From a virus: 39,605 bases of DNA. The stretch lies in the IMG/VR virus record IMGVR_UViG_3300025121_000009; one strand, given 5' to 3'. Position 1 is the first letter of the stretch. The number at the start of each line of letters is the position of its first letter. The notes under the pieces were generated by a model. That model was not told the origin of the DNA. It saw only the letters and a list, made by a program, of their open reading frames with translations, and did not search any database. The position numbers and the translations under genes are program-made. Shown here piece by piece: positions 1-7,083 of the stretch.

Positions 1-127
1 TTTGATAGTTCTATTCTTCCCTTAATACTGTCCTTTGTTTCCTCTCTATCTTCCAAGTGTTTTAGGACACCCTCAAAGAAACCTCTTGCTCCATCTTTAC
101 ATCCTACTTCGTACCTCTCGGATAGTA
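1..127. repeat. Direct repeat copy A (127 nt identical to 1629-1755); nt 1-67 are also identical to 39539-39605
   Basis: Base-by-base comparison of tttgatagttctattcttccc...ctctcggatagta at both positions. Confidence 0.9.
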
Positions 128-713
128 GTTGGGATAAATCTCCCAAATTACAAATATCTTCACAACCACAATCTAGACATACTTTAATCCCTATCACTTT
201 AACACCTTTTTTATAATCTGCATCGTGGTATTTTCTTCCTATATTATTTCCAAAACAATTCTTACAGATATCTATCTCTCTCCACTCCTCTTGCTTCTCT
301 GGTTTAACTAAACTTTGGAAAGCTAAGGACTCCTTATCACCCTCTGTTTCTTTTATGAAATCTGGATTATTCTTTAGAAACTCTACTGCTTTCTTTCTAT
401 CTTCCATTAGCTGTCCAACTGTGATGTTTCTCCAGTCCTCTGGTTGCTTCTCTGGTTTATACTCAAATCTTTCTAATTGTTCTTCTGCCTTTTTATCAAA
501 CTCTTCTTTGTGTTTCTTCCATTCTTGATAGTGCTTATCTACATAACCTACCCAGTCATCTGGTTGCTTCTGGGATTGGTCTAACTTCTGATAACACTCA
601 TTACAAAGTATTCGGAAGTTCAAACTAATATTTCTTAACTCTATTGACTTAATAATGACTAGAACCTTCTTACAATTTGAACATACCATAATCAATTCAT
701 TTTTCTTCTTCAT
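1..713 (-). CDS. Modular Zn-ribbon protein, N-terminal 237 codons; the gene runs off the window start and resumes in frame at 39605..39481 (mosaic paralog family, member 1)
   Basis: ATG at 713-711. The minus-strand frame is open to position 1 and is absent from the ORF track because no stop lies inside the window. Hand translation: MKKKNELIMVCSNCKK..CNECYQKLDQSQKQPDDW..YKPEKQPEDWR..VKPEKQEEWREIDICKNC..CLDCGCEDIC..QLLSERYEVGCKDGARGFFEGVLKHLEDREETKDSIKGRIELS. It has several CxxC pairs. The last 127 nt are identical to 1629-1755. Confidence 0.6.
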   Translation of the reverse strand, partial: MKKKNELIMVCSNCKKVLVIIKSIELRNISLNFRILCNECYQKLDQSQKQPDDWVGYVDKHYQEWKKHKEEFDKKAEEQLERFEYKPEKQPEDWRNITVGQLMEDRKKAVEFLKNNPDFIKETEGDKESLAFQSLVKPEKQEEWREIDICKNCFGNNIGRKYHDADYKKGVKVIGIKVCLDCGCEDICNLGDLSQLLSERYEVGCKDGARGFFEGVLKHLEDREETKDSIKGRIELS

Positions 714-716
714 AGG

Positions 717-899
717 TTATCCTTCGTTTAATTTATTTAATACTTCCGTTGCTTCCAATTCCGATGATACTTCTATACTAGCAATATGGTTAAAACAATA
801 AGATAATTCTACAGATATATCCTTCCTAGTTCTAACTATCTCTGCCTTATCCCAGTCAAATCGTATATCATAAATTCCTTTTGTTGTTTGTATTTTCAT
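717..899 (-). CDS. Hypothetical protein (60 aa)
   Basis: ORF on the common strand. AAGGAATAACCT precedes the ATG. The stop lies 4 nt before the next start. No recognisable motif. Confidence 0.5.
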   Translation of the reverse strand: MKIQTTKGIYDIRFDWDKAEIVRTRKDISVELSYCFNHIASIEVSSELEATEVLNKLNEG

Positions 900-910
900 A
901 GGTTATTCCT

Positions 911-1117
911 TTACTTAACTAATTTAGATACTTGGTTTTCAGCAACTCCGAATAACTCCTGAATATGTTTCATACCCTCTATAAATGCTGTTTGTTCTGC
1001 TTTCAATGAATCCTCCTTCTTGAAATTCTCTATGCAAACATCAATTTCGTGCTGAATATTCTCCATTACTTGTTTTGTTGTATATTGAATCATACTCTCG
1101 TCTTTCTCCTTCTTCAT
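911..1117 (-). CDS. Hypothetical protein (68 aa)
   Basis: SD-like GGGGAG lies 7 nt upstream of the ATG. Packed against its neighbours. Confidence 0.5.
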   Translation of the reverse strand: MKKEKDESMIQYTTKQVMENIQHEIDVCIENFKKEDSLKAEQTAFIEGMKHIQELFGVAENQVSKLVK

Positions 1118-1119
1118 AT

Positions 1120-1425
1120 TTACTCCCCTTTCTCTTTAAGATTAAAACTACCATTTTGATAGTCAATGTAAGTATCAAGGTCGACTTCATTTCCAGTCCT
1201 CCTTGTCGTAAGAAGTTTCTTTAACTCCTCAACTGGTATCTCGTAATAGTATCTCCTACCAATACACAAAGCTGTTTTTTTGTTATCGACTGGTAGTCCT
1301 GTTATAAACTTCCCATTTCCCTGTATCTGAAAGTTCAATTCACCACTCTTATCATCTTCAATAGGTACAATGAAAGATATAACTATGCTTTTGTCAGGTA
1401 CTCTTATCTCTCTTTTCTTATCCAT
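1120..1425 (-). CDS. Hypothetical protein (101 aa from the internal ATG; the track ORF extends to 1470)
   Basis: The ATG at 1425 (MDKKREIRV...) is preceded by AAAGGAGTAAAAACA, a canonical SD. The longer 1470 start has none. Confidence 0.5.
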   Translation of the reverse strand: MDKKREIRVPDKSIVISFIVPIEDDKSGELNFQIQGNGKFITGLPVDNKKTALCIGRRYYYEIPVEELKKLLTTRRTGNEVDLDTYIDYQNGSFNLKEKGE

Positions 1426-1493
1426 TGTTTTTACTCCTTTAATTAAATTAAAATCAACATGAACATCCACCAGAAAGACATATCAAGTTTATC

Positions 1494-1517
1494 AAGCAAA
1501 AGGTATAAAAAAATACC
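1494..1517 (-). terminator. Weak intrinsic-terminator-like hairpin after gene 1571..1924
   Basis: Minus strand reads GGTATTTTTTTATACC followed by TTTTGC. The stem is AT-rich and only 5-6 bp. Confidence 0.25.
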
Positions 1518-1570
1518 ACTAATTACCATCCTAATTAACTTCCCTAGTAAACTCGGAAATATACTCTCTC

Positions 1571-1924
1571 TCATTCTCCCTCCTTTAATAGTTTAGATAA
1601 GTCTATTTTATAAACCTCTAAAAGAACCTTTGATAGTTCTATTCTTCCCTTAATACTGTCCTTTGTTTCCTCTCTATCTTCCAAGTGTTTTAGGACACCC
1701 TCAAAGAAACCTCTTGCTCCATCTTTACATCCTACTTCGTACCTCTCGGATAGTAATTCTTGTACAAAGTTGGCAGTTTTTTCCTCATCCAGCTCATATA
1801 GTGATTCCACCCACTTACTTAACTCTTCACCATCGTCTCTCCACAATTTGTGGTCTTTTGTTAATGCCCCATCTTCTGGAAACTTAAACTCCTTTTTCCA
1901 CTCTTTTATTTCTCTTTTTCCCAT
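1571..1924 (-). CDS. Mosaic paralog family member 2 (117 aa); C-terminal 62 aa nearly identical to the junction-spanning gene
   Basis: The C-terminus LLSERYEVGCKDGARGFFEGVLKHLEDREETKDSIKGRIELSKVLLEVYKIDLSKLLKEGE matches my translation of 1..127 plus 39481..39538. Confidence 0.65.
   Translation of the reverse strand: MGKREIKEWKKEFKFPEDGALTKDHKLWRDDGEELSKWVESLYELDEEKTANFVQELLSERYEVGCKDGARGFFEGVLKHLEDREETKDSIKGRIELSKVLLEVYKIDLSKLLKEGE
1629..1755. repeat. Direct repeat copy B (identical to 1-127); similarity continues with mismatches between 1571-1628 and 39481-39538
   Basis: Direct comparison of the sequences. Confidence 0.9.
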
Positions 1925-1929
1925 TATTC

Positions 1930-2499
1930 TTATTCCTTTAATAGTTTAGATATTTTATCTGCAATCTCATCATAAGCATAATTCCCCTTGTTGTGTATAT
2001 CATTCGTAACAAGTTTTAACATAAACAACTCCTCTTTAGTAAATGTCCTCTCGGATAGTAGTTGAGATATAAAATCTCTTAAATCTTCCTCATTAGCTTC
2101 TTTTCCGTCTATCATAAAATATTCTCCATCTTCCCAAGTAATTCTTTTCCTCCACTCCTCTTGCTTCTCTGGTTCTTTATTGCTAGTAGTATATACATCT
2201 CCTGTATAAAACACCCTAACAGGTTCTTCTTTAATTCTTAAATCCCAATACTCTAAAAGCTTTTCTAAATCAGTCCTAAAATTCTCTGCTACAAATCCAT
2301 CAAGTTCATCATAAGTGTTCCACCTATCCAACATCTTCTGTAAATATTCTTTTACTTCTATCCCCCCTGGTCGCTTCTGGGATTGGTTGAATGCTTCTAT
2401 AAGCTCGTTAAGCTTACTCATTATTCCCCATTCACTACTTGTTATATCAAGAGGGTCTTTCCTCAAATCCAGATTACTTAACTTCTCTATCTTCTTCAT
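1930..2499 (-). CDS. Mosaic paralog family member 3 (189 aa)
   Basis: Shares the modules NQSQKRPG, PEKQEEWRKRITW and SQLLSER with the other members. A 24-nt exact match (tccactcctcttgcttctctggtt) occurs at 2150-2173 and 281-304. Confidence 0.6.
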   Translation of the reverse strand: MKKIEKLSNLDLRKDPLDITSSEWGIMSKLNELIEAFNQSQKRPGGIEVKEYLQKMLDRWNTYDELDGFVAENFRTDLEKLLEYWDLRIKEEPVRVFYTGDVYTTSNKEPEKQEEWRKRITWEDGEYFMIDGKEANEEDLRDFISQLLSERTFTKEELFMLKLVTNDIHNKGNYAYDEIADKISKLLKE

Positions 2500-2502
2500 A
2501 GG

Positions 2503-2988
2503 TTATTCCTTTACTTTTAATTTAGATAACCTCCTCATAACAAAACCCTCTGCTTCTCTAAGTGTTGTAAACTTGTTCATATCTGAATATCCACTTTCAC
2601 CTTCCACCTGTACTACCTCCCATTCAAACTTTCTGGTCAAAGGATTCTTTATCCTTATTACACTGAATACTTCATTTCCACGACTAAATAGGTATTGGTA
2701 CTTCCCAAATATCTGTGTTTTTGGGCTAATTCTTTCAAATTCCAGCCACTGTTCATGTATCACCCTTGTCTTCTTTATCCCTTCTGTTGCCTTTATTGGC
2801 TCCACCTCTAAATCCTCTAGCTCTTTATTCCTTGTGAACGCCATATCTACACATAAATCAATAGCCTCCTCTGCATCACTTTTTATCTCTGGTTGCTTCT
2901 GGGATTGGTTAAGGTAATCTATTATCTCGTTGATTTTAAGCTTCATAGTTACTTCACTATATCCACTCATCTTCTCTATCTTATCCAT
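2503..2988 (-). CDS. Mosaic paralog family member 4 (161 aa)
   Basis: Contains NQSQKQPE. A 22-nt exact match (tctggttgcttctgggattggt) occurs at 2889-2910 and 559-580. Confidence 0.6.
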   Translation of the reverse strand: MDKIEKMSGYSEVTMKLKINEIIDYLNQSQKQPEIKSDAEEAIDLCVDMAFTRNKELEDLEVEPIKATEGIKKTRVIHEQWLEFERISPKTQIFGKYQYLFSRGNEVFSVIRIKNPLTRKFEWEVVQVEGESGYSDMNKFTTLREAEGFVMRRLSKLKVKE

Positions 2989-3304
2989 TGTTTTTACTTT
3001 GTTTAATGTTATCTAACTCTTTCTCAATATCATCTACTAAAACATACTCTAATGTGACCCTATATCCGTGTTCCTCTTTTTCTATTTTGTAATTAGTTTT
3101 CTTCTTTAGTACCTCCTCTAACACCTCCCTTTTTGCTTCTTGTCTAACCTCGTTTATCTTTTCAGTCATATGGTCTGCAAGTTCCCCTATATTTACTCCA
3201 CATAGAGGACAGTTCATATGTTTTTGTTCGTCTGAATGGTAAATAGCAATCATCTTTATTAAATGTTCTGACCACTCTCTAATCTCTTTCTCCTGCTGTG
3301 TCAT
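2981..3304 (-). CDS. Hypothetical protein (107 aa)
   Basis: ORF overlapping the next gene by 8 nt. It has a single CPLC motif and nothing else recognisable. Confidence 0.5.
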   Translation of the reverse strand: MTQQEKEIREWSEHLIKMIAIYHSDEQKHMNCPLCGVNIGELADHMTEKINEVRQEAKREVLEEVLKKKTNYKIEKEEHGYRVTLEYVLVDDIEKELDNIKQSKNNG

Positions 3305-3709: not shown

Positions 3710-3725
3710 TGATTAAATTAAACTA
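3710..3725 (-). promoter_or_regulatory. Conserved box TAGTTTAATTTAATCA, 25 nt (box start to ATG) upstream of gene 3332..3700
   Basis: 16-nt exact match with 4914-4929. Confidence 0.4.
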
Positions 3726-4904
3726 ACCTTTAACAACAGCTAGCGGCTTTAACTCTACCAGTATCTTTGTTAAATCTTTCTGGTTTTCCATAACAACATC
3801 TATATCCTTATATGCTTGAGGAGCTTCTCCAAAGTCTAGATTACCTTTTCTATCCTTTCCCCACCTACCGTATACAACCCCCTCCATAGATTTGTCTGCC
3901 TCTTCTAGAGTTATGTTTCTACTTGCTTCCATTCTACCCATTTTCCTACCCGCTCCGTGTGAACAACTCATAAAGGATTGAACATTTCCCAGTCCCTCTG
4001 TTATATAGGACTTAGTACCCATAGACCCTGGAATAATTCCAACCTCTCCTAGCCTTGCACTTGTAGCACCTTTTCTATGAACCCATACATTCCTACCCAT
4101 GTGGTTTTCCAGTCTTGCGTAGTTGTGTGCTATGTTAATTATCTCTTCTGCTTTATAATCGCCAAGAGTATCAGCTACAACACCCATGACCCTCTCCATC
4201 ATCAGTTTCCTATTCGCAAATGCAAAGTCCACACAATACTGCATTTCCTGTATATAATCTTGACCCTCTTTAGTGTCGGTAGGTAGATATGCTAAGTCTT
4301 GTTCTACAACATTTGGTATATACCACTTCTTAGCTAATTCAATAGCTTTTGCATTGTAGTAATCACACACTTGCTTACCAAGATTTCTACTACCAGAATG
4401 TATCATTATCCACAATTCACCCTCGCTACTTCTTTGTAGTTCTATAAAGTGATTACCACCACCAAGCGTTCCTATTTGTGTAAGGGCGTTGTCATACTCC
4501 TGAGCTACAACGACACCATTAGCACTTTTGCTATTACTAAATGGCATTAGGCTCTCCTCTTGTTTCTTCTGGTGGTGTGCAAACCCAACTGGTACAACCT
4601 TTCTTATTCCACCCAATGTTTCTTTTAATTGTTCCTGCGTAATATCCTCTGTTTTTATATGAGTATTAACTACACACATACCACAACCTATATCTACGCC
4701 CACCATATTAGGGCTAATAACATCAGCAAGAGCTACAACCCCACCAATAGGCATTCCGTACCCTTGATGACTATCTGGCATTACTGCAACCCACTTGTAT
4801 ACAAAAGGTAGGTTAGCAATATTTTTAATCTGCTCCATAGCACCATCCTCGATATCTTCTAACCATAGTTTTACCTGTATCTTTTCAGTATTTATTTCTT
4901 TCAT
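3723..4904 (-). CDS. rtcB: RtcB-family 3'-phosphate/5'-hydroxyl RNA ligase
   Basis: 393 aa carrying RtcB hallmark blocks: DSHQGYGMPIGGV, GGGNHFIELQ, IHSGSRNLG, AHNY, HRKGAT, IIPGSMG and SCSHGAGR. Confidence 0.9.
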   Translation of the reverse strand: MKEINTEKIQVKLWLEDIEDGAMEQIKNIANLPFVYKWVAVMPDSHQGYGMPIGGVVALADVISPNMVGVDIGCGMCVVNTHIKTEDITQEQLKETLGGIRKVVPVGFAHHQKKQEESLMPFSNSKSANGVVVAQEYDNALTQIGTLGGGNHFIELQRSSEGELWIMIHSGSRNLGKQVCDYYNAKAIELAKKWYIPNVVEQDLAYLPTDTKEGQDYIQEMQYCVDFAFANRKLMMERVMGVVADTLGDYKAEEIINIAHNYARLENHMGRNVWVHRKGATSARLGEVGIIPGSMGTKSYITEGLGNVQSFMSCSHGAGRKMGRMEASRNITLEEADKSMEGVVYGRWGKDRKGNLDFGEAPQAYKDIDVVMENQKDLTKILVELKPLAVVKG

Positions 4905-4913
4905 CTTCTCTTT

Positions 4914-4929
4914 TGATTAAATTAAACTA
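4914..4929 (-). promoter_or_regulatory. Conserved box TAGTTTAATTTAATCA upstream of rtcB, preceded by AAGGAG
   Basis: Exact 16-nt repeat of 3710-3725. The GGAG ends exactly 25 nt before the ATG. Confidence 0.4.
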
Positions 4930-4946
4930 CTCCTTAATAACTCATG

Positions 4947-5211
4947 ACGGACATCCTCTTACTACTTTTTGGTGTGCTTCTTCCAAAAGGGTTTAATTAC
5001 TACCCACAAGAAGCGTAGTTACCATTTAGAGGTCTGTCCGTTTGAATTATCAAAGAGCTAATAACCTGTATGAGATACTCTGGGAACTTACTACTGAGTT
5101 GGCAGTGCCGTTCTTCACTGCTTCTTCTAGGATAGTTGTTTCCCTCGCTCTCCATTATGCTACTAAGATGATAGTAAGTCGCACTTCGCATTCTCACCAA
5201 AGTACCTCATA
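4947..5211 (-). ncRNA. Candidate structured ncRNA made of two adjacent domains, each closed by a long stem; class unknown
   Basis: Domain A (5069-5211): an 11-bp closing helix pairs TATGAGGTACT with AGTATCTCATA. Nested inside are a 9-bp helix (5172-5180 with 5085-5093) and the hairpin GCAGTG/CACTGC (5102-5121). Domain B (4947-5041): ACGGACA..CCTCT pairs with AGAGG..TGTCCGT. Nested inside are GCTTCTT/AAGAAGC and GGGT/ACCC. The region has no convincing CDS. Confidence 0.4.
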
Positions 5212-5310
5212 CAAATTATTAAAAGAACTGGTAGGTGCAACTGTTTTATTCTTAGTATTCAACAGAACCCAACAAATCTTTGTTGTAGCCTTTATTTAAC
5301 ACCCACCATA

Positions 5311-5382
5311 TTGCAGGGGTTAGAATTGAACTAACTACTCTTAGGCTATGAACCTAAAGTGCAACCGTTACACTTCCCTGCG
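5311..5382 (-). tRNA. tRNA with CAU anticodon (Met; initiator-like C1xA72 mismatch; Ile2 not excluded)
   Basis: A hand fold gives a full cloverleaf. Acceptor CGCAGGG/CCCTGCA with C1 opposite A72. D arm GTGT-AACGGTT-GCAC. Anticodon arm TTAGG-TTCATAG-CCTAA. Variable loop GAGTA. T arm GTTAG-TTCAATT-CTAAC. Discriminator A. No CCA is encoded. Confidence 0.8.
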
Positions 5383-5485
5383 ATGTTACCTGTGCCTTAG
5401 CTCCAGACTTAGCGTGGTGTCGTTTAAGAATTGCTATAATTAAATGTCCACATCCAGAACCAGGGTACAAGTAACACCCTAATTT

Positions 5486-6213: not shown

Positions 6214-6241
6214 ATCTTACACCCTATGTAACTGGTGTCAA
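6214..6241 (-). promoter_or_regulatory. Sigma70-like promoter TTGACA-N16-TAAGAT upstream of gene 5486..6181
   Basis: The minus strand reads TTGACACCAGTTACATAGGGTGTAAGATATAAACAATATATAAC. It shares a TAAACAATATA block with the promoter at 7326-7354. Confidence 0.5.
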
Positions 6242-6262
6242 GTGTTTAACAAATCTTATAGT

Positions 6263-6391
6263 AATGGGGGCTGGGAATTAAACCCAGCAACGGTTATTAC
6301 AGGGAGATATGAAACTCCCTTGCTAAGCTTTCGCTATAAAGCCACCCTGCTTATTATTTAGCAAACCCCTTACTCTTTTGGATACCCCATT
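6263..6391 (-). ncRNA. tRNA-like structured RNA (129 nt), not a canonical cloverleaf
   Basis: A 7-bp terminal stem, AATGGGG/CCCCATT, abuts a T-arm-like hairpin GCTGGG-TTTAATT-CCCAGC. Other hairpins: AGGGAG-TTTCATAT-CTCCCT (8-nt loop containing CAT), GCTTT-ATAGCG-AAAGC and TTGCT-AAATAATA-AGCAG. Confidence 0.35.
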
Positions 6392-6403: not shown

Positions 6404-6631
6404 TTAATCAGCTTCGTACAACTTTTTACTAAAGCTCTCTTCTAGGTCTTTCATAAACCTTATCTTAACCTCGTATAACTTTTCTTTCTGCTCAATAGTC
6501 ATTTCTTTGTTCAACTCTTTTTTCAATCTTTCTCTAATTCTCATTCTCTCCTCTAACCTACTAAACACACTTGGAGTGTCTTCTGTTAGATCCACTACCC
6601 TCACACCTTTAATTGGTCTTGATATTTTCAT
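6404..6631 (-). CDS. Hypothetical protein (75 aa)
   Basis: ORF packed 2 nt after the upstream gene. No motif. Confidence 0.5.
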   Translation of the reverse strand: MKISRPIKGVRVVDLTEDTPSVFSRLEERMRIRERLKKELNKEMTIEQKEKLYEVKIRFMKDLEESFSKKLYEAD

Positions 6632-6633
6632 AT

Positions 6634-7083
6634 TTATAATTTGTTAAAGTAATCTGTTAAACCCAATATCCTAGCTCCTGCCTTATCAACAGGGTTGCCA
6701 TAGGTGTCTAAGTCTACCCACTTAAAATCTAGGTCGTAGAGAAACCTACCTATACCCCACTTAACAGCAGCTCTCTTAAAGGAATCACTAAACTCCCCCT
6801 TTTCTCCCTCAAATGGACTTGGTACCCCAGTGTCTTCTTTTGCTACCCACTCCCCACCTATTCTCAACTCAAGTTTACAAATAAGACTACCCTCTCTTCT
6901 GTAACTATCCCTCCAGTTTTCTATTCCAACTGCTCGGTCCAGTAAGTCCATAACATCTCTTGCGTCTATGTAAGCAACACATTGTGCTTTCTTTCCGTCT
7001 TTAGCTTTGCTTTGTATCTTCCACTTGTATGGAATTGCATAAGTAAGCTTTTCGGTTAATGTATATTCTTTTTTATTTTCCAT
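6634..7083 (-). CDS. Rad52/Sak-like single-strand annealing protein
   Basis: The block FSDSFKRAAVKWGIGRFLY with upstream ENWRDSY..L.L.IGGEW matches the Rad52/Rad22-type phage SSAP signature. Confidence 0.6.
   Translation of the reverse strand: MENKKEYTLTEKLTYAIPYKWKIQSKAKDGKKAQCVAYIDARDVMDLLDRAVGIENWRDSYRREGSLICKLELRIGGEWVAKEDTGVPSPFEGEKGEFSDSFKRAAVKWGIGRFLYDLDFKWVDLDTYGNPVDKAGARILGLTDYFNKL

Follow-up and report, generated by a model that had tools for sequence, protein, structure and literature searches.

The window analysed here (the whole 39,605-nucleotide stretch of IMG/VR virus record IMGVR_UViG_3300025121_000009) is a ~39.6-kb tailed-phage genome with an SU10-type capsid and adaptor, a portal, a terminase and a tail fibre, and with genes that all run on the same strand. 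On that strand, the minus strand, it also encodes a 129-nt RNA (6391 to 6263), which a sequence-only reading of the window had singled out as a tRNA-like element with a CAU-containing loop. Covariation and conservation among relatives show that this element is a real, selected RNA structure on the minus strand, and with those relatives it defines an uncurated RNA family of phage tRNA-like non-coding RNAs that matches no curated family. The parts of the RNA, in the order in which they are transcribed and with RNA positions counted from its 5' end, are as follows:

6385..6391 (-): 5' strand of the acceptor-like stem, RNA positions 1-7 (AAUGGGG), whose partner is 6263-6269
6367..6384 (-): U8, A9 and the D arm, with the family stem U10-R25, C11-G24, C12-G23 and loop A13 A14 R A R R G19 U A21 A22
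6346..6365 (-): hairpin A, in the anticodon-arm position, with a covarying 5-bp stem (28-32:41-45) and an 8-nt loop, AAAUAAUA
6344..6346 (-): 5' strand of helix P, positions 46-48, whose partner is 6292-6294 (98-100) and which closes a branched 'variable arm'
6322..6342 (-): hairpin B, positions 50-70, with a GAAA tetraloop and covariation in both its lower and its upper stem
6301..6320 (-): hairpin C, positions 72-91, with a covarying 6-bp stem (AGGGAG/CUCCCU) and an 8-nt loop, UUUCAUAU
6289..6300 (-): linker GUAAUAACCGUU, positions 92-103, in which ACC is the 3' strand of helix P and GUU lies just ahead of the T stem
6270..6288 (-): T arm, positions 104-122, with a 6-bp stem (GCUGGG/CCCAGC) and a 7-nt loop (UUUAAUU), abutting the terminal stem directly
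6263..6269 (-): 3' strand of the acceptor-like stem (CCCCAUU), positions 123-129; CCA is not encoded and the following base is A

The order along the window RNA is therefore acceptor-like stem, D arm, hairpin A, helix P enclosing hairpins B and C, T arm, acceptor-like stem. The strings on which the sequence-only reading had relied are all present at 6263-6391 when the minus strand is read 5' to 3', namely the terminal stem AAUGGGG/CCCCAUU, the T-like hairpin that abuts it, and AGGGAG-UUUCAUAU-CUCCCU. The three interior hairpins that it described also exist, but helix P (46-48:98-100) joins two of them into a branched variable arm, and the 3-bp D arm (in the window, stem U10-G25/C11-G24/C12-G23 and loop A13 A14 A A G A G19 U A21 A22) had been overlooked. 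The pairs of helix P are G-C, G-C and U-A in the window and G-C, A-U, U-A and A-U in the relative termed here G004; the helix has 4-5 bp in three other copies (L053 copy 2, L137 and L268). Taken alone, the window sequence folds only modestly better than its shuffled versions (z = -2.3 for the minus strand and -2.9 for the plus strand).

Relatives of the element in other phages

A covariance model, R1, was built from the window and its nearest virus record, G001 (IMGVR_UViG_3300029959_000065), and a second model, R2, was used to filter later matches. For the census, public collections were scanned for the D-arm word that is invariant in the window, G001 and G004, and the matches were filtered by script and by R2; the copy counts are lower bounds. 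At least nine further copies occur in at least eight other phage or metagenome contigs, with scores of 39-147 bits under the two models, and most of these phages share almost no proteins with the window phage. The firm members, with R2 bit scores except where R1 is named, are:

Window, 6391-6263 (-): 129 nt, 149 bits
G001, L005:3532-3660: 129 nt, 147 bits
G004, L049:1042-916 (-): 127 nt, 108.5 bits (64.8 bits under R1)
L053 copy 2, 1131-1266: 136 nt, 115 bits, in tandem with copy 1
L053 copy 1, 884-1127: 244 nt, long form
L137, 1248-1370: 123 nt, 89 bits
L268, 1674-1807: 134 nt, 106 bits, on a 3-kb contig binned in an archaeal metagenome-assembled genome and adjoined by sigma-70 promoters and a window-like gene
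L051 (G007), 556-675: 120 nt, 82 bits
L198, 103-23 (-): 81 nt, 39 bits, short form
L243, 813-896: 84 nt, 39 bits, short form

Exact scans for the D-arm motif gave ~85 viral and at least 120 metagenome matches, most of which are chance or coding, and six of the seven genome-collection matches were false. Four doubtful members (L242, L147, L181 and L185) were excluded; one of these, L242:1437-1538 (minus strand, 29.5 bits), is a possible member whose T loop of ~19 nt is enlarged by an inner hairpin, and it stands outside the statistics. A probable 92-nt short form, scoring 27 bits, lies on the minus strand at L275:13325-13416 within a 129-kb jumbo phage contig (IMGVR_UViG_3300020048_000038); it has a small extra variable hairpin and a single middle hairpin, the loop of which, ACCAUAUAA, contains CAU.

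A BLAST search of the locus against 50,697 GenBank phages gave no match. When nhmmer and R1 were applied to 43 RtcB-bearing phage loci, G001 alone surfaced by sequence; G004, a complete 36-kb phage with terminal repeats that shares RtcB and 2-3 weak protein matches with the window, surfaced only through a whole-genome search. Comparison of the element-bearing phages revealed almost no common proteins and hence no candidate protein partner. No description of phage tRNA-like RNAs of this kind was found in the open-access literature.

Contig L053 carries two copies of the element in tandem. More broadly, its region 760-1270 (IMGVR_UViG_3300009671_000088) contains three structured RNAs back to back, followed by a window-like TTGACAC promoter: the first RNA (~770-880) has a 9-bp framing stem and a T-arm-like hairpin with an inner hairpin in place of its loop, and the 136-nt copy begins 3 nt past the 244-nt copy.

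Covariation

The pairing was examined in a nine-sequence model alignment, A6, for which the structure was hand-corrected by changing the register of the D stem and adding helix P. In A6, 94.8% of cells are standard pairs (a figure somewhat inflated by the fit of the alignment to the model structure), as against 44-57% after a shift of the 3' partners by 1-3 columns; both sides change at 25 of the 37 pairs, and none of 500 column shuffles does as well. Since the model shaped A6, the acceptor and T stems were also tallied over the nine copies by simple end-anchoring, independently of the model. By this count pairing in the 6-bp T stem is complete (100%); five of the six positions show 2-4 pair types and changes on both sides, and the sixth is invariably G-C. 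Within the acceptor stem all seven pairs vary with standard pairing kept, pairs 1-6 changing on both sides and pair 7 only from G-C to G-U; two of the nine copies have a one-base bulge in this stem. In helix P, G47-C99 is replaced by A-U in G004.

The closest pair of copies tells a similar story on a shorter scale. The elements of the window and G001 are identical at 127 of 129 positions (98%), and the sequence just upstream is highly diverged. One of the two differences, C88 to U, converts a G-C pair of hairpin C to G.U in G001, and the other, U112 to C, yields the textbook T loop UUCAAUU. The many G.U pairs of the family, including that created by C88 to U, are tolerated only if the minus strand is the RNA, which identifies the minus strand as the transcript. 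The sequence-only reading had staked itself on covariation in homologs, and the stems prove to be both conserved and covarying.

Constant and variable parts

None of the 10 aligned copies departs from the D-arm sequence GUAUCCAA.A..GUAAGG, which is part of the invariant stretch G7 U8 A9 U10 C11 C12 A13 A14. A16.. G19 U20 A21 A22 G23 G24. The hallmarks of the family, as captured by R2, are this D arm, a 7-bp end-to-end stem and a 6-bp T arm with a UUYRAAU loop, all of which the window element displays. Each copy keeps the nucleotides of the tRNA tertiary core (U8, A14, R15, a purine at 18, G19, A21 and G53-C61), and in eight of nine copies the T loop is U-U-Y-R-A-A/U-U closed by G-C (U54-U55-Y56-R57-A58), the exception being L053 copy 1 (UGCAAAU). 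In other words, the conserved nucleotides are those that build the elbow and core of a tRNA through U8-A14, R15-Y48, R18/G19 with 55/56, and U54-A58. GUU or CU precedes the T stem, and ..A(C/U)CGUU is kept in most long forms. The D arm is of the class II style (Leu/Ser/Tyr), with a 3-bp stem, unpaired A13.A22 and a large D loop. The stack of acceptor and T stems is 7+6 = 13 bp in all nine copies, as opposed to the 12 bp (7+5) of tRNA.

The middle of the molecule is modular, with a single hairpin at the short end of the range (81 nt) and three or more at the long end (244 nt). In short forms the D arm is followed by one hairpin and then by a variable loop of 9 nt. Long forms, including that of the window, have hairpin A, helix P, and hairpins B and C on a junction closed by helix P; L053 copy 1 has >150 nt of additional hairpins. 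The GAAA loop of hairpin B is kept in five of seven long forms. The loops of hairpin A (AAAUAAUA, AAGAUAUUA/G, AAAAUUUA, AUAUCAAA, CUGCACA and CUUCACCUGU) are 7-10 nt long, A/U-rich and unconserved, and none of those listed contains the pattern U33-NNN-R37. The loops of hairpin C are:

Window and G001: UUUCAUAU
L137: UUUUCAUU, CAU present
L268: UACUCAUAAG, CAU present
L053 copy 2: UUUUCUUAUAUU, CAU absent
G004: AUUUAU, CAU absent
L051: UGACGA, CAU absent

These range from 6 to 12 nt, and CAU, which occurs only in some lineages, is absent also from L198 and L243. Since neither the length of the loop nor CAU itself is conserved, CAU is not an anticodon; it is instead an ancestral remnant kept in some lineages, on a side branch and not under the D arm. 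The weight that had been placed on the 8-nt CAU loop is thus not borne out, given UUUUCUUAUAUU, AUUUAU and UGACGA in three relatives, and a decoy that works by copying an anticodon loop is unlikely because that loop is not kept. The base following the 3' strand (the discriminator) is A, U, C or G among members, and CCA is not encoded. The 9 nt immediately 3' of the RNA (ACUAUAAGA; window 6254-6262) are identical in the window, G001 (L005) and L268:1808-1816 despite differing acceptor stems, and may either signal 3' processing or belong to the following promoter as its upstream element.

Distinction from canonical tRNA, tmRNA and Rfam families

ARAGORN made no credible call for the element in its default, relaxed, intron or tmRNA modes, returning only spurious low-score calls, and Rfam 15 (RF00005 included) gave nothing at gathering score or at E<=10 for the element region and the short-form contigs, which answers the Rfam check proposed with the sequence-only reading. 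No 5-bp stem with a 7-nt loop (U33, anticodon, R37) is conserved among the orthologs. As regards tmRNA, the ARAGORN mode is silent, pair 3:70 is U-A and not G3.U70, and 129 nt are too short for a tag open reading frame (ORF). Both a tRNA with an intron and a tmRNA were accordingly rejected, the ARAGORN calls being spurious and low-scoring. With loops of 6-12 nt, no conserved U33 or R37, a varying discriminator and silent detectors, the element, to judge from its sequence, does not decode. The view that it is a tRNA mimic rather than a tRNA holds up: the tRNA core is kept and the detectors are silent.

Genomic context

The features of the window that surround the element are:

6634-7083 (-): Erf/Rad52-like annealase
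6404..6631 (-): 75-aa ORF upstream of the element, with its stop codon 12 nt before the RNA
6214..6241 (-): sigma-70-type promoter (TTGACA, 16 nt, TAAGAT), beginning 22 nt past the 3' end of the RNA
5310-5383 (-): tRNA-Met(CAU), 880 nt from the element
3723-4904 (-): RtcB

The tRNA(CAU) is the one that had been placed 900 nt away. The gap between the upstream stop codon and the RNA is only 3-12 nt in the window, G001, G004 and L268, leaving no room for a promoter of its own, so that the RNA is co-transcribed with the upstream ORF. No intrinsic terminator follows the RNA, and a TTGACA box lies 11-32 nt downstream of it in the window, G001, G004, L053 and L268. The L051 copy is part of a ~190-nt leader that follows a promoter, and a ribosome-binding site (RBS) comes 25 nt after the RNA. 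From this gene context, the RNA is made within longer early transcripts and would have to be cut out of them as phage tRNAs are. The ~190-nt non-coding leader between the sigma-70-type promoter and the tRNA-like RNA in L051 (335-555; G007) may itself be another structured RNA.

Recombination genes recur near the element. In the window and G001 an Erf/Rad52-like annealase lies one or two genes upstream; in G004 a RecT-like gene lies directly downstream, as do an exonuclease and an Erf-like annealase in L051. The element therefore adjoins annealase (single-strand annealing protein, SSAP) genes of three different families in three unrelated phages. The RecT-like annealase of G004 (L052:1-844, minus strand) is split into an 80-aa and a 180-aa ORF, which could reflect a stop codon, a frameshift or an assembly error. 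RtcB lies downstream of the element at a distance of 1.4 kb in the window and 2.9 kb in G004, and the two RtcB proteins are 71% identical. An obligatory partnership with RtcB was considered and dropped, as 41 other RtcB loci gave no R2 match; the links of the element to RtcB and to recombinase genes are suggestive only.

Three further observations concern these neighbourhoods. First, many phage RtcB loci have a tRNA-Pro(UGG) within a few to ~100 nt after rtcB, which may be a tRNA that these phages need to replace or repair; the window lacks tRNA-Pro(UGG). The loci in question are:

L005:6183-6256
L006:6279-6352
L007:4114-4187
L027:1607-1680
L009:6236-6307
L011:6206-6276

Second, window 4905-5309 (minus strand) comprises ~400 nt without ORFs between tRNA-Met and rtcB, in which a 7-bp clamp (ACGGACA/UGUCCGU) surrounds long helices just ahead of the rtcB RBS; RNAs of this region gave no R1 match and are distinct from the family of the 129-nt element. 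Third, small coiled-coil-like mosaic proteins with the motif (E/K)(E/D)WR(E/T)K(L/I) are encoded at L005:2911-3528, L268:1361-1663 and L053:130-432 (compare window 1-3000); the ORF that directly precedes the RNA in G001 and in L268 encodes such a protein, as does an ORF farther upstream in G008.

Comparison with known RNAs

By analogy, the known system that the element would work most like is the T4 species 1 RNA, rnaC (139 nt, AF158101 70908-71046). This too is a phage-encoded small stable RNA of similar size, located among tRNA genes. Pairing of its two ends yields an acceptor-like stem that directly adjoins a canonical T arm (CCGGG-UUCGAAU-CCCGG); the RNA has big hairpins inside and lacks an anticodon, and no function has yet been assigned to it (PMC9697503). 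Just 5' of the T stem, or extending into it, the rnaC sequence (L274:2909-3047) and window 6289-6300 both have the 9 nt UAAUAACCG, which could be either a coincidence or a trace of common descent. The resemblance is one of outline architecture, and homology is not shown: the T4 tRNA region containing rnaC and rnaD gave no R2 match to these RNAs, and rnaC lacks the GUAUCCAA..GUAAGG D arm, has U.U mismatches in its terminal stem and has a T stem of 5 bp instead of 6.

Class II tRNAs (Leu/Ser/Tyr) share with the element a 3-bp D stem, unpaired 13/22, a large D loop with G18G19 and a long variable arm, and the only non-family R2 match in the T4 tRNA cluster is tRNA-Leu, a weak one at 17 bits. They differ from it in that the element has no 7-nt anticodon loop, a 6-bp T stem (and thus a 13-bp stack), a branched two-hairpin variable arm and a variable discriminator. 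A class II tRNA is the likely evolutionary source of the element, which may be viewed as a class-II-like tRNA body whose anticodon loop was lost and whose variable region grew into a branched arm.

Proposed function and alternatives

The best reading, and a moderately probable one, is that the locus is a gene for a stable, non-decoding tRNA mimic that acts in trans. What we infer about its processing, stability, trans action and partner is as follows. The element would be transcribed without a promoter of its own inside a polycistronic early transcript and released by the host's tRNA-maturation enzymes--that is, by an RNase P cut at position 1, by 3' trimming and possibly by CCA addition--to give a stable RNA of ~130 nt. 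The mimic would then act through its tRNA core (the elbow and acceptor end), being bound by a factor that reads the shape of a tRNA and not its anticodon. Candidate partners are tRNA-directed toxins or defence nucleases, repair or surveillance factors, and maturation enzymes. The leading guess is either a host factor of stress or defence that is directed at tRNAs or a factor of RNA repair, a guess that the RtcB ligase and initiator-type tRNA 0.9-1.4 kb downstream would fit. In tRNA-Sec, a 13-bp stack goes with not using EF-Tu; by analogy, the stack of the same length found here would be fitting in a mimic meant to be kept from the ribosome.

Several points weigh against this reading. Besides the fit of A6 to the model noted above, the family is known from at least about 10 members, two of which have an acceptor-stem bulge; a stack of 13 bp rather than 12 bp may affect recognition by tRNA enzymes; R2 found no element at 41 other phage RtcB loci (+/-5 kb); and RtcB is absent from the element-bearing contigs G007 (35 kb) and G008 (12.9 kb), both of which are incomplete.

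The principal alternative, possible though unlikely, is that the element is a cis-acting processing ('punctuation') signal, in which the tRNA shape recruits RNase P or RNase Z to cut the polycistronic early transcript at the boundary of the upstream gene and the following transcription unit, and the released RNA has no function. The cuts would set the ends and half-lives of mRNAs. This alternative takes in the suggestion, made from the sequence alone, of a 3' UTR (untranslated region) stabiliser for the upstream transcript, which survives in this form. Precedents include the tRNA punctuation of mitochondrial transcripts and MALAT1-mascRNA. The element sits where a terminator would be expected, 3-12 nt past a stop codon and 11-32 nt before a strong promoter with no intrinsic terminator, in five genomes, and the L051 copy in a 5' leader, 25 nt ahead of an RBS, is likewise in keeping with such a role. 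RNase P, however, needs little beyond an acceptor/T minihelix, whereas the whole D arm is invariant in sequence across unrelated phages, compensatory change maintains elaborate inner hairpins, and the tandem copies of L053 are what one expects of a gene with an RNA product. Because full elbow conservation and an invariant D arm exceed what an RNase P site requires, the mimic acting in trans is preferred over the processing signal.

It is decidedly improbable that the RNA is a Y-RNA-like adaptor binding host Ro60 (Rsr), PNPase or a similar RNA-surveillance machine. The idea draws on the bacterial YrlA RNAs, non-decoding tRNA mimics that keep the D-loop/T-loop tertiary nucleotides and occur also in phages (Chen et al. 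2014, PMC4201824); their genes have a same-strand Ro60 (TROVE) gene within about 4 kb, in Salmonella they also adjoin rtcBA, and one member is cut by RNase P and receives CCA (PMC4201824). The window element is likewise a non-decoding tRNA mimic near RtcB. Yet YrlA is circularly permuted relative to tRNA (order V-T-AS-D, i.e., variable arm, T arm, acceptor stem, D arm), with a capped acceptor-like stem and with its ends forming a Ro60-binding stem that carries GNCGAAN0-1G (PMC4201824), whereas the ends of the element form its acceptor stem and no GNCGAAN0-1G motif lies near its 5' end. Nor is there any Rfam YrlA match even at E<=10, any TROVE/Ro60 (PF05731) gene in G001, G004, G007, G008 or the scanned window ORFs (all those of >=400 aa included), or any YrlA in 13 sister RtcB loci. 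The element thus parts company with YrlA in Rfam model, in Ro60 neighbour and in strand topology, and the membership proposed from the sequence alone does not stand.

An antisense regulator on a tRNA-like scaffold, whose variable loops would pair with phage mRNAs, is very improbable. The model for it is the C4 antisense RNA of phages P1 and P7, a regulatory RNA cut by RNase P from a longer early transcript by virtue of its tRNA-like features. Variable, phage-specific loops on a constant scaffold are in its favour, and the loop of hairpin C and the linker seemed, by eye, complementary to the start region of the downstream gene. The duplex energies, however, are ordinary, being equalled by 26% of genome windows for hairpin A and by 67% for hairpin C with the linker; inspection of G004 found no complementarity; and neither a C4 match in Rfam nor an antisense target above background in the adjoining gene came to light. 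C4-like pairing with the downstream start region was rejected on these energies.

Less probable again is a working but unorthodox tRNA, one that reads AUG or a four-base codon with its 8-nt CAU loop or that divides synthetase identity and decoding between separate hairpins. UUCAUA occurs both in the element and in the loop of the tRNA(CAU) that the phage itself encodes, loops of L137, L268 and L275 again contain CAU, and two of the window hairpins have 8-nt loops. Against this, CAU is absent from G004, L053 copy 2, L051, L198 and L243, among loops of 6-12 nt; hairpin C is on the variable-arm branch (helix P) and not under the D arm; the loop in the anticodon position lacks U33/R37; the discriminator base is unconserved; and the 13-bp stack is that of tRNA-Sec, which is associated with not using EF-Tu.

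A decaying tRNA pseudogene or chance fold, to which rejection by tRNA finders and a single-sequence z of only -2.3 might point, is scarcely credible given compensatory changes in every helix across unrelated phages, which argue against a degenerate tRNA, the 98% identity of the window and G001 elements next to a flank that has diverged, and a D arm of constant sequence.

A possible role in phage counter-defence

A more specific and rather improbable reading is that phages deploy an anticodon-less tRNA body as a decoy or inhibitor of tRNA-directed immunity. The effector would be bound through the elbow and acceptor and would be offered no anticodon arm that could be cleaved or that is needed. 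The idea draws on the SSAP modules of three families beside the element in three unrelated phages and on RtcB downstream of it in two lineages. Several tRNA-attacking defence nucleases or toxins respond to recombination or anti-RecBCD functions of phages, and PtuAB, from retron Ec78, is a tRNA-cleaving effector of this kind. So too is P2 OLD (PMC12445682). If true, such a decoy would complement the replacement tRNAs and the RtcB-based repair of these phages.

More generally, standard tRNA and Rfam annotation misses genes of this type. Phage tRNAs have recently been recognised as counter-defence tools, and tRNA-shaped non-decoding RNAs such as T4 RNA C and YrlA have been functionally obscure for decades. 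The family described here is useful for experiments inasmuch as it combines an invariant tRNA core with freely varying inner modules, occurs in unrelated phages, and occupies a fixed site between early genes and promoters. It thus provides a tractable handle on the purpose of a tRNA body without an anticodon, whether as processing signal, decoy or adaptor.

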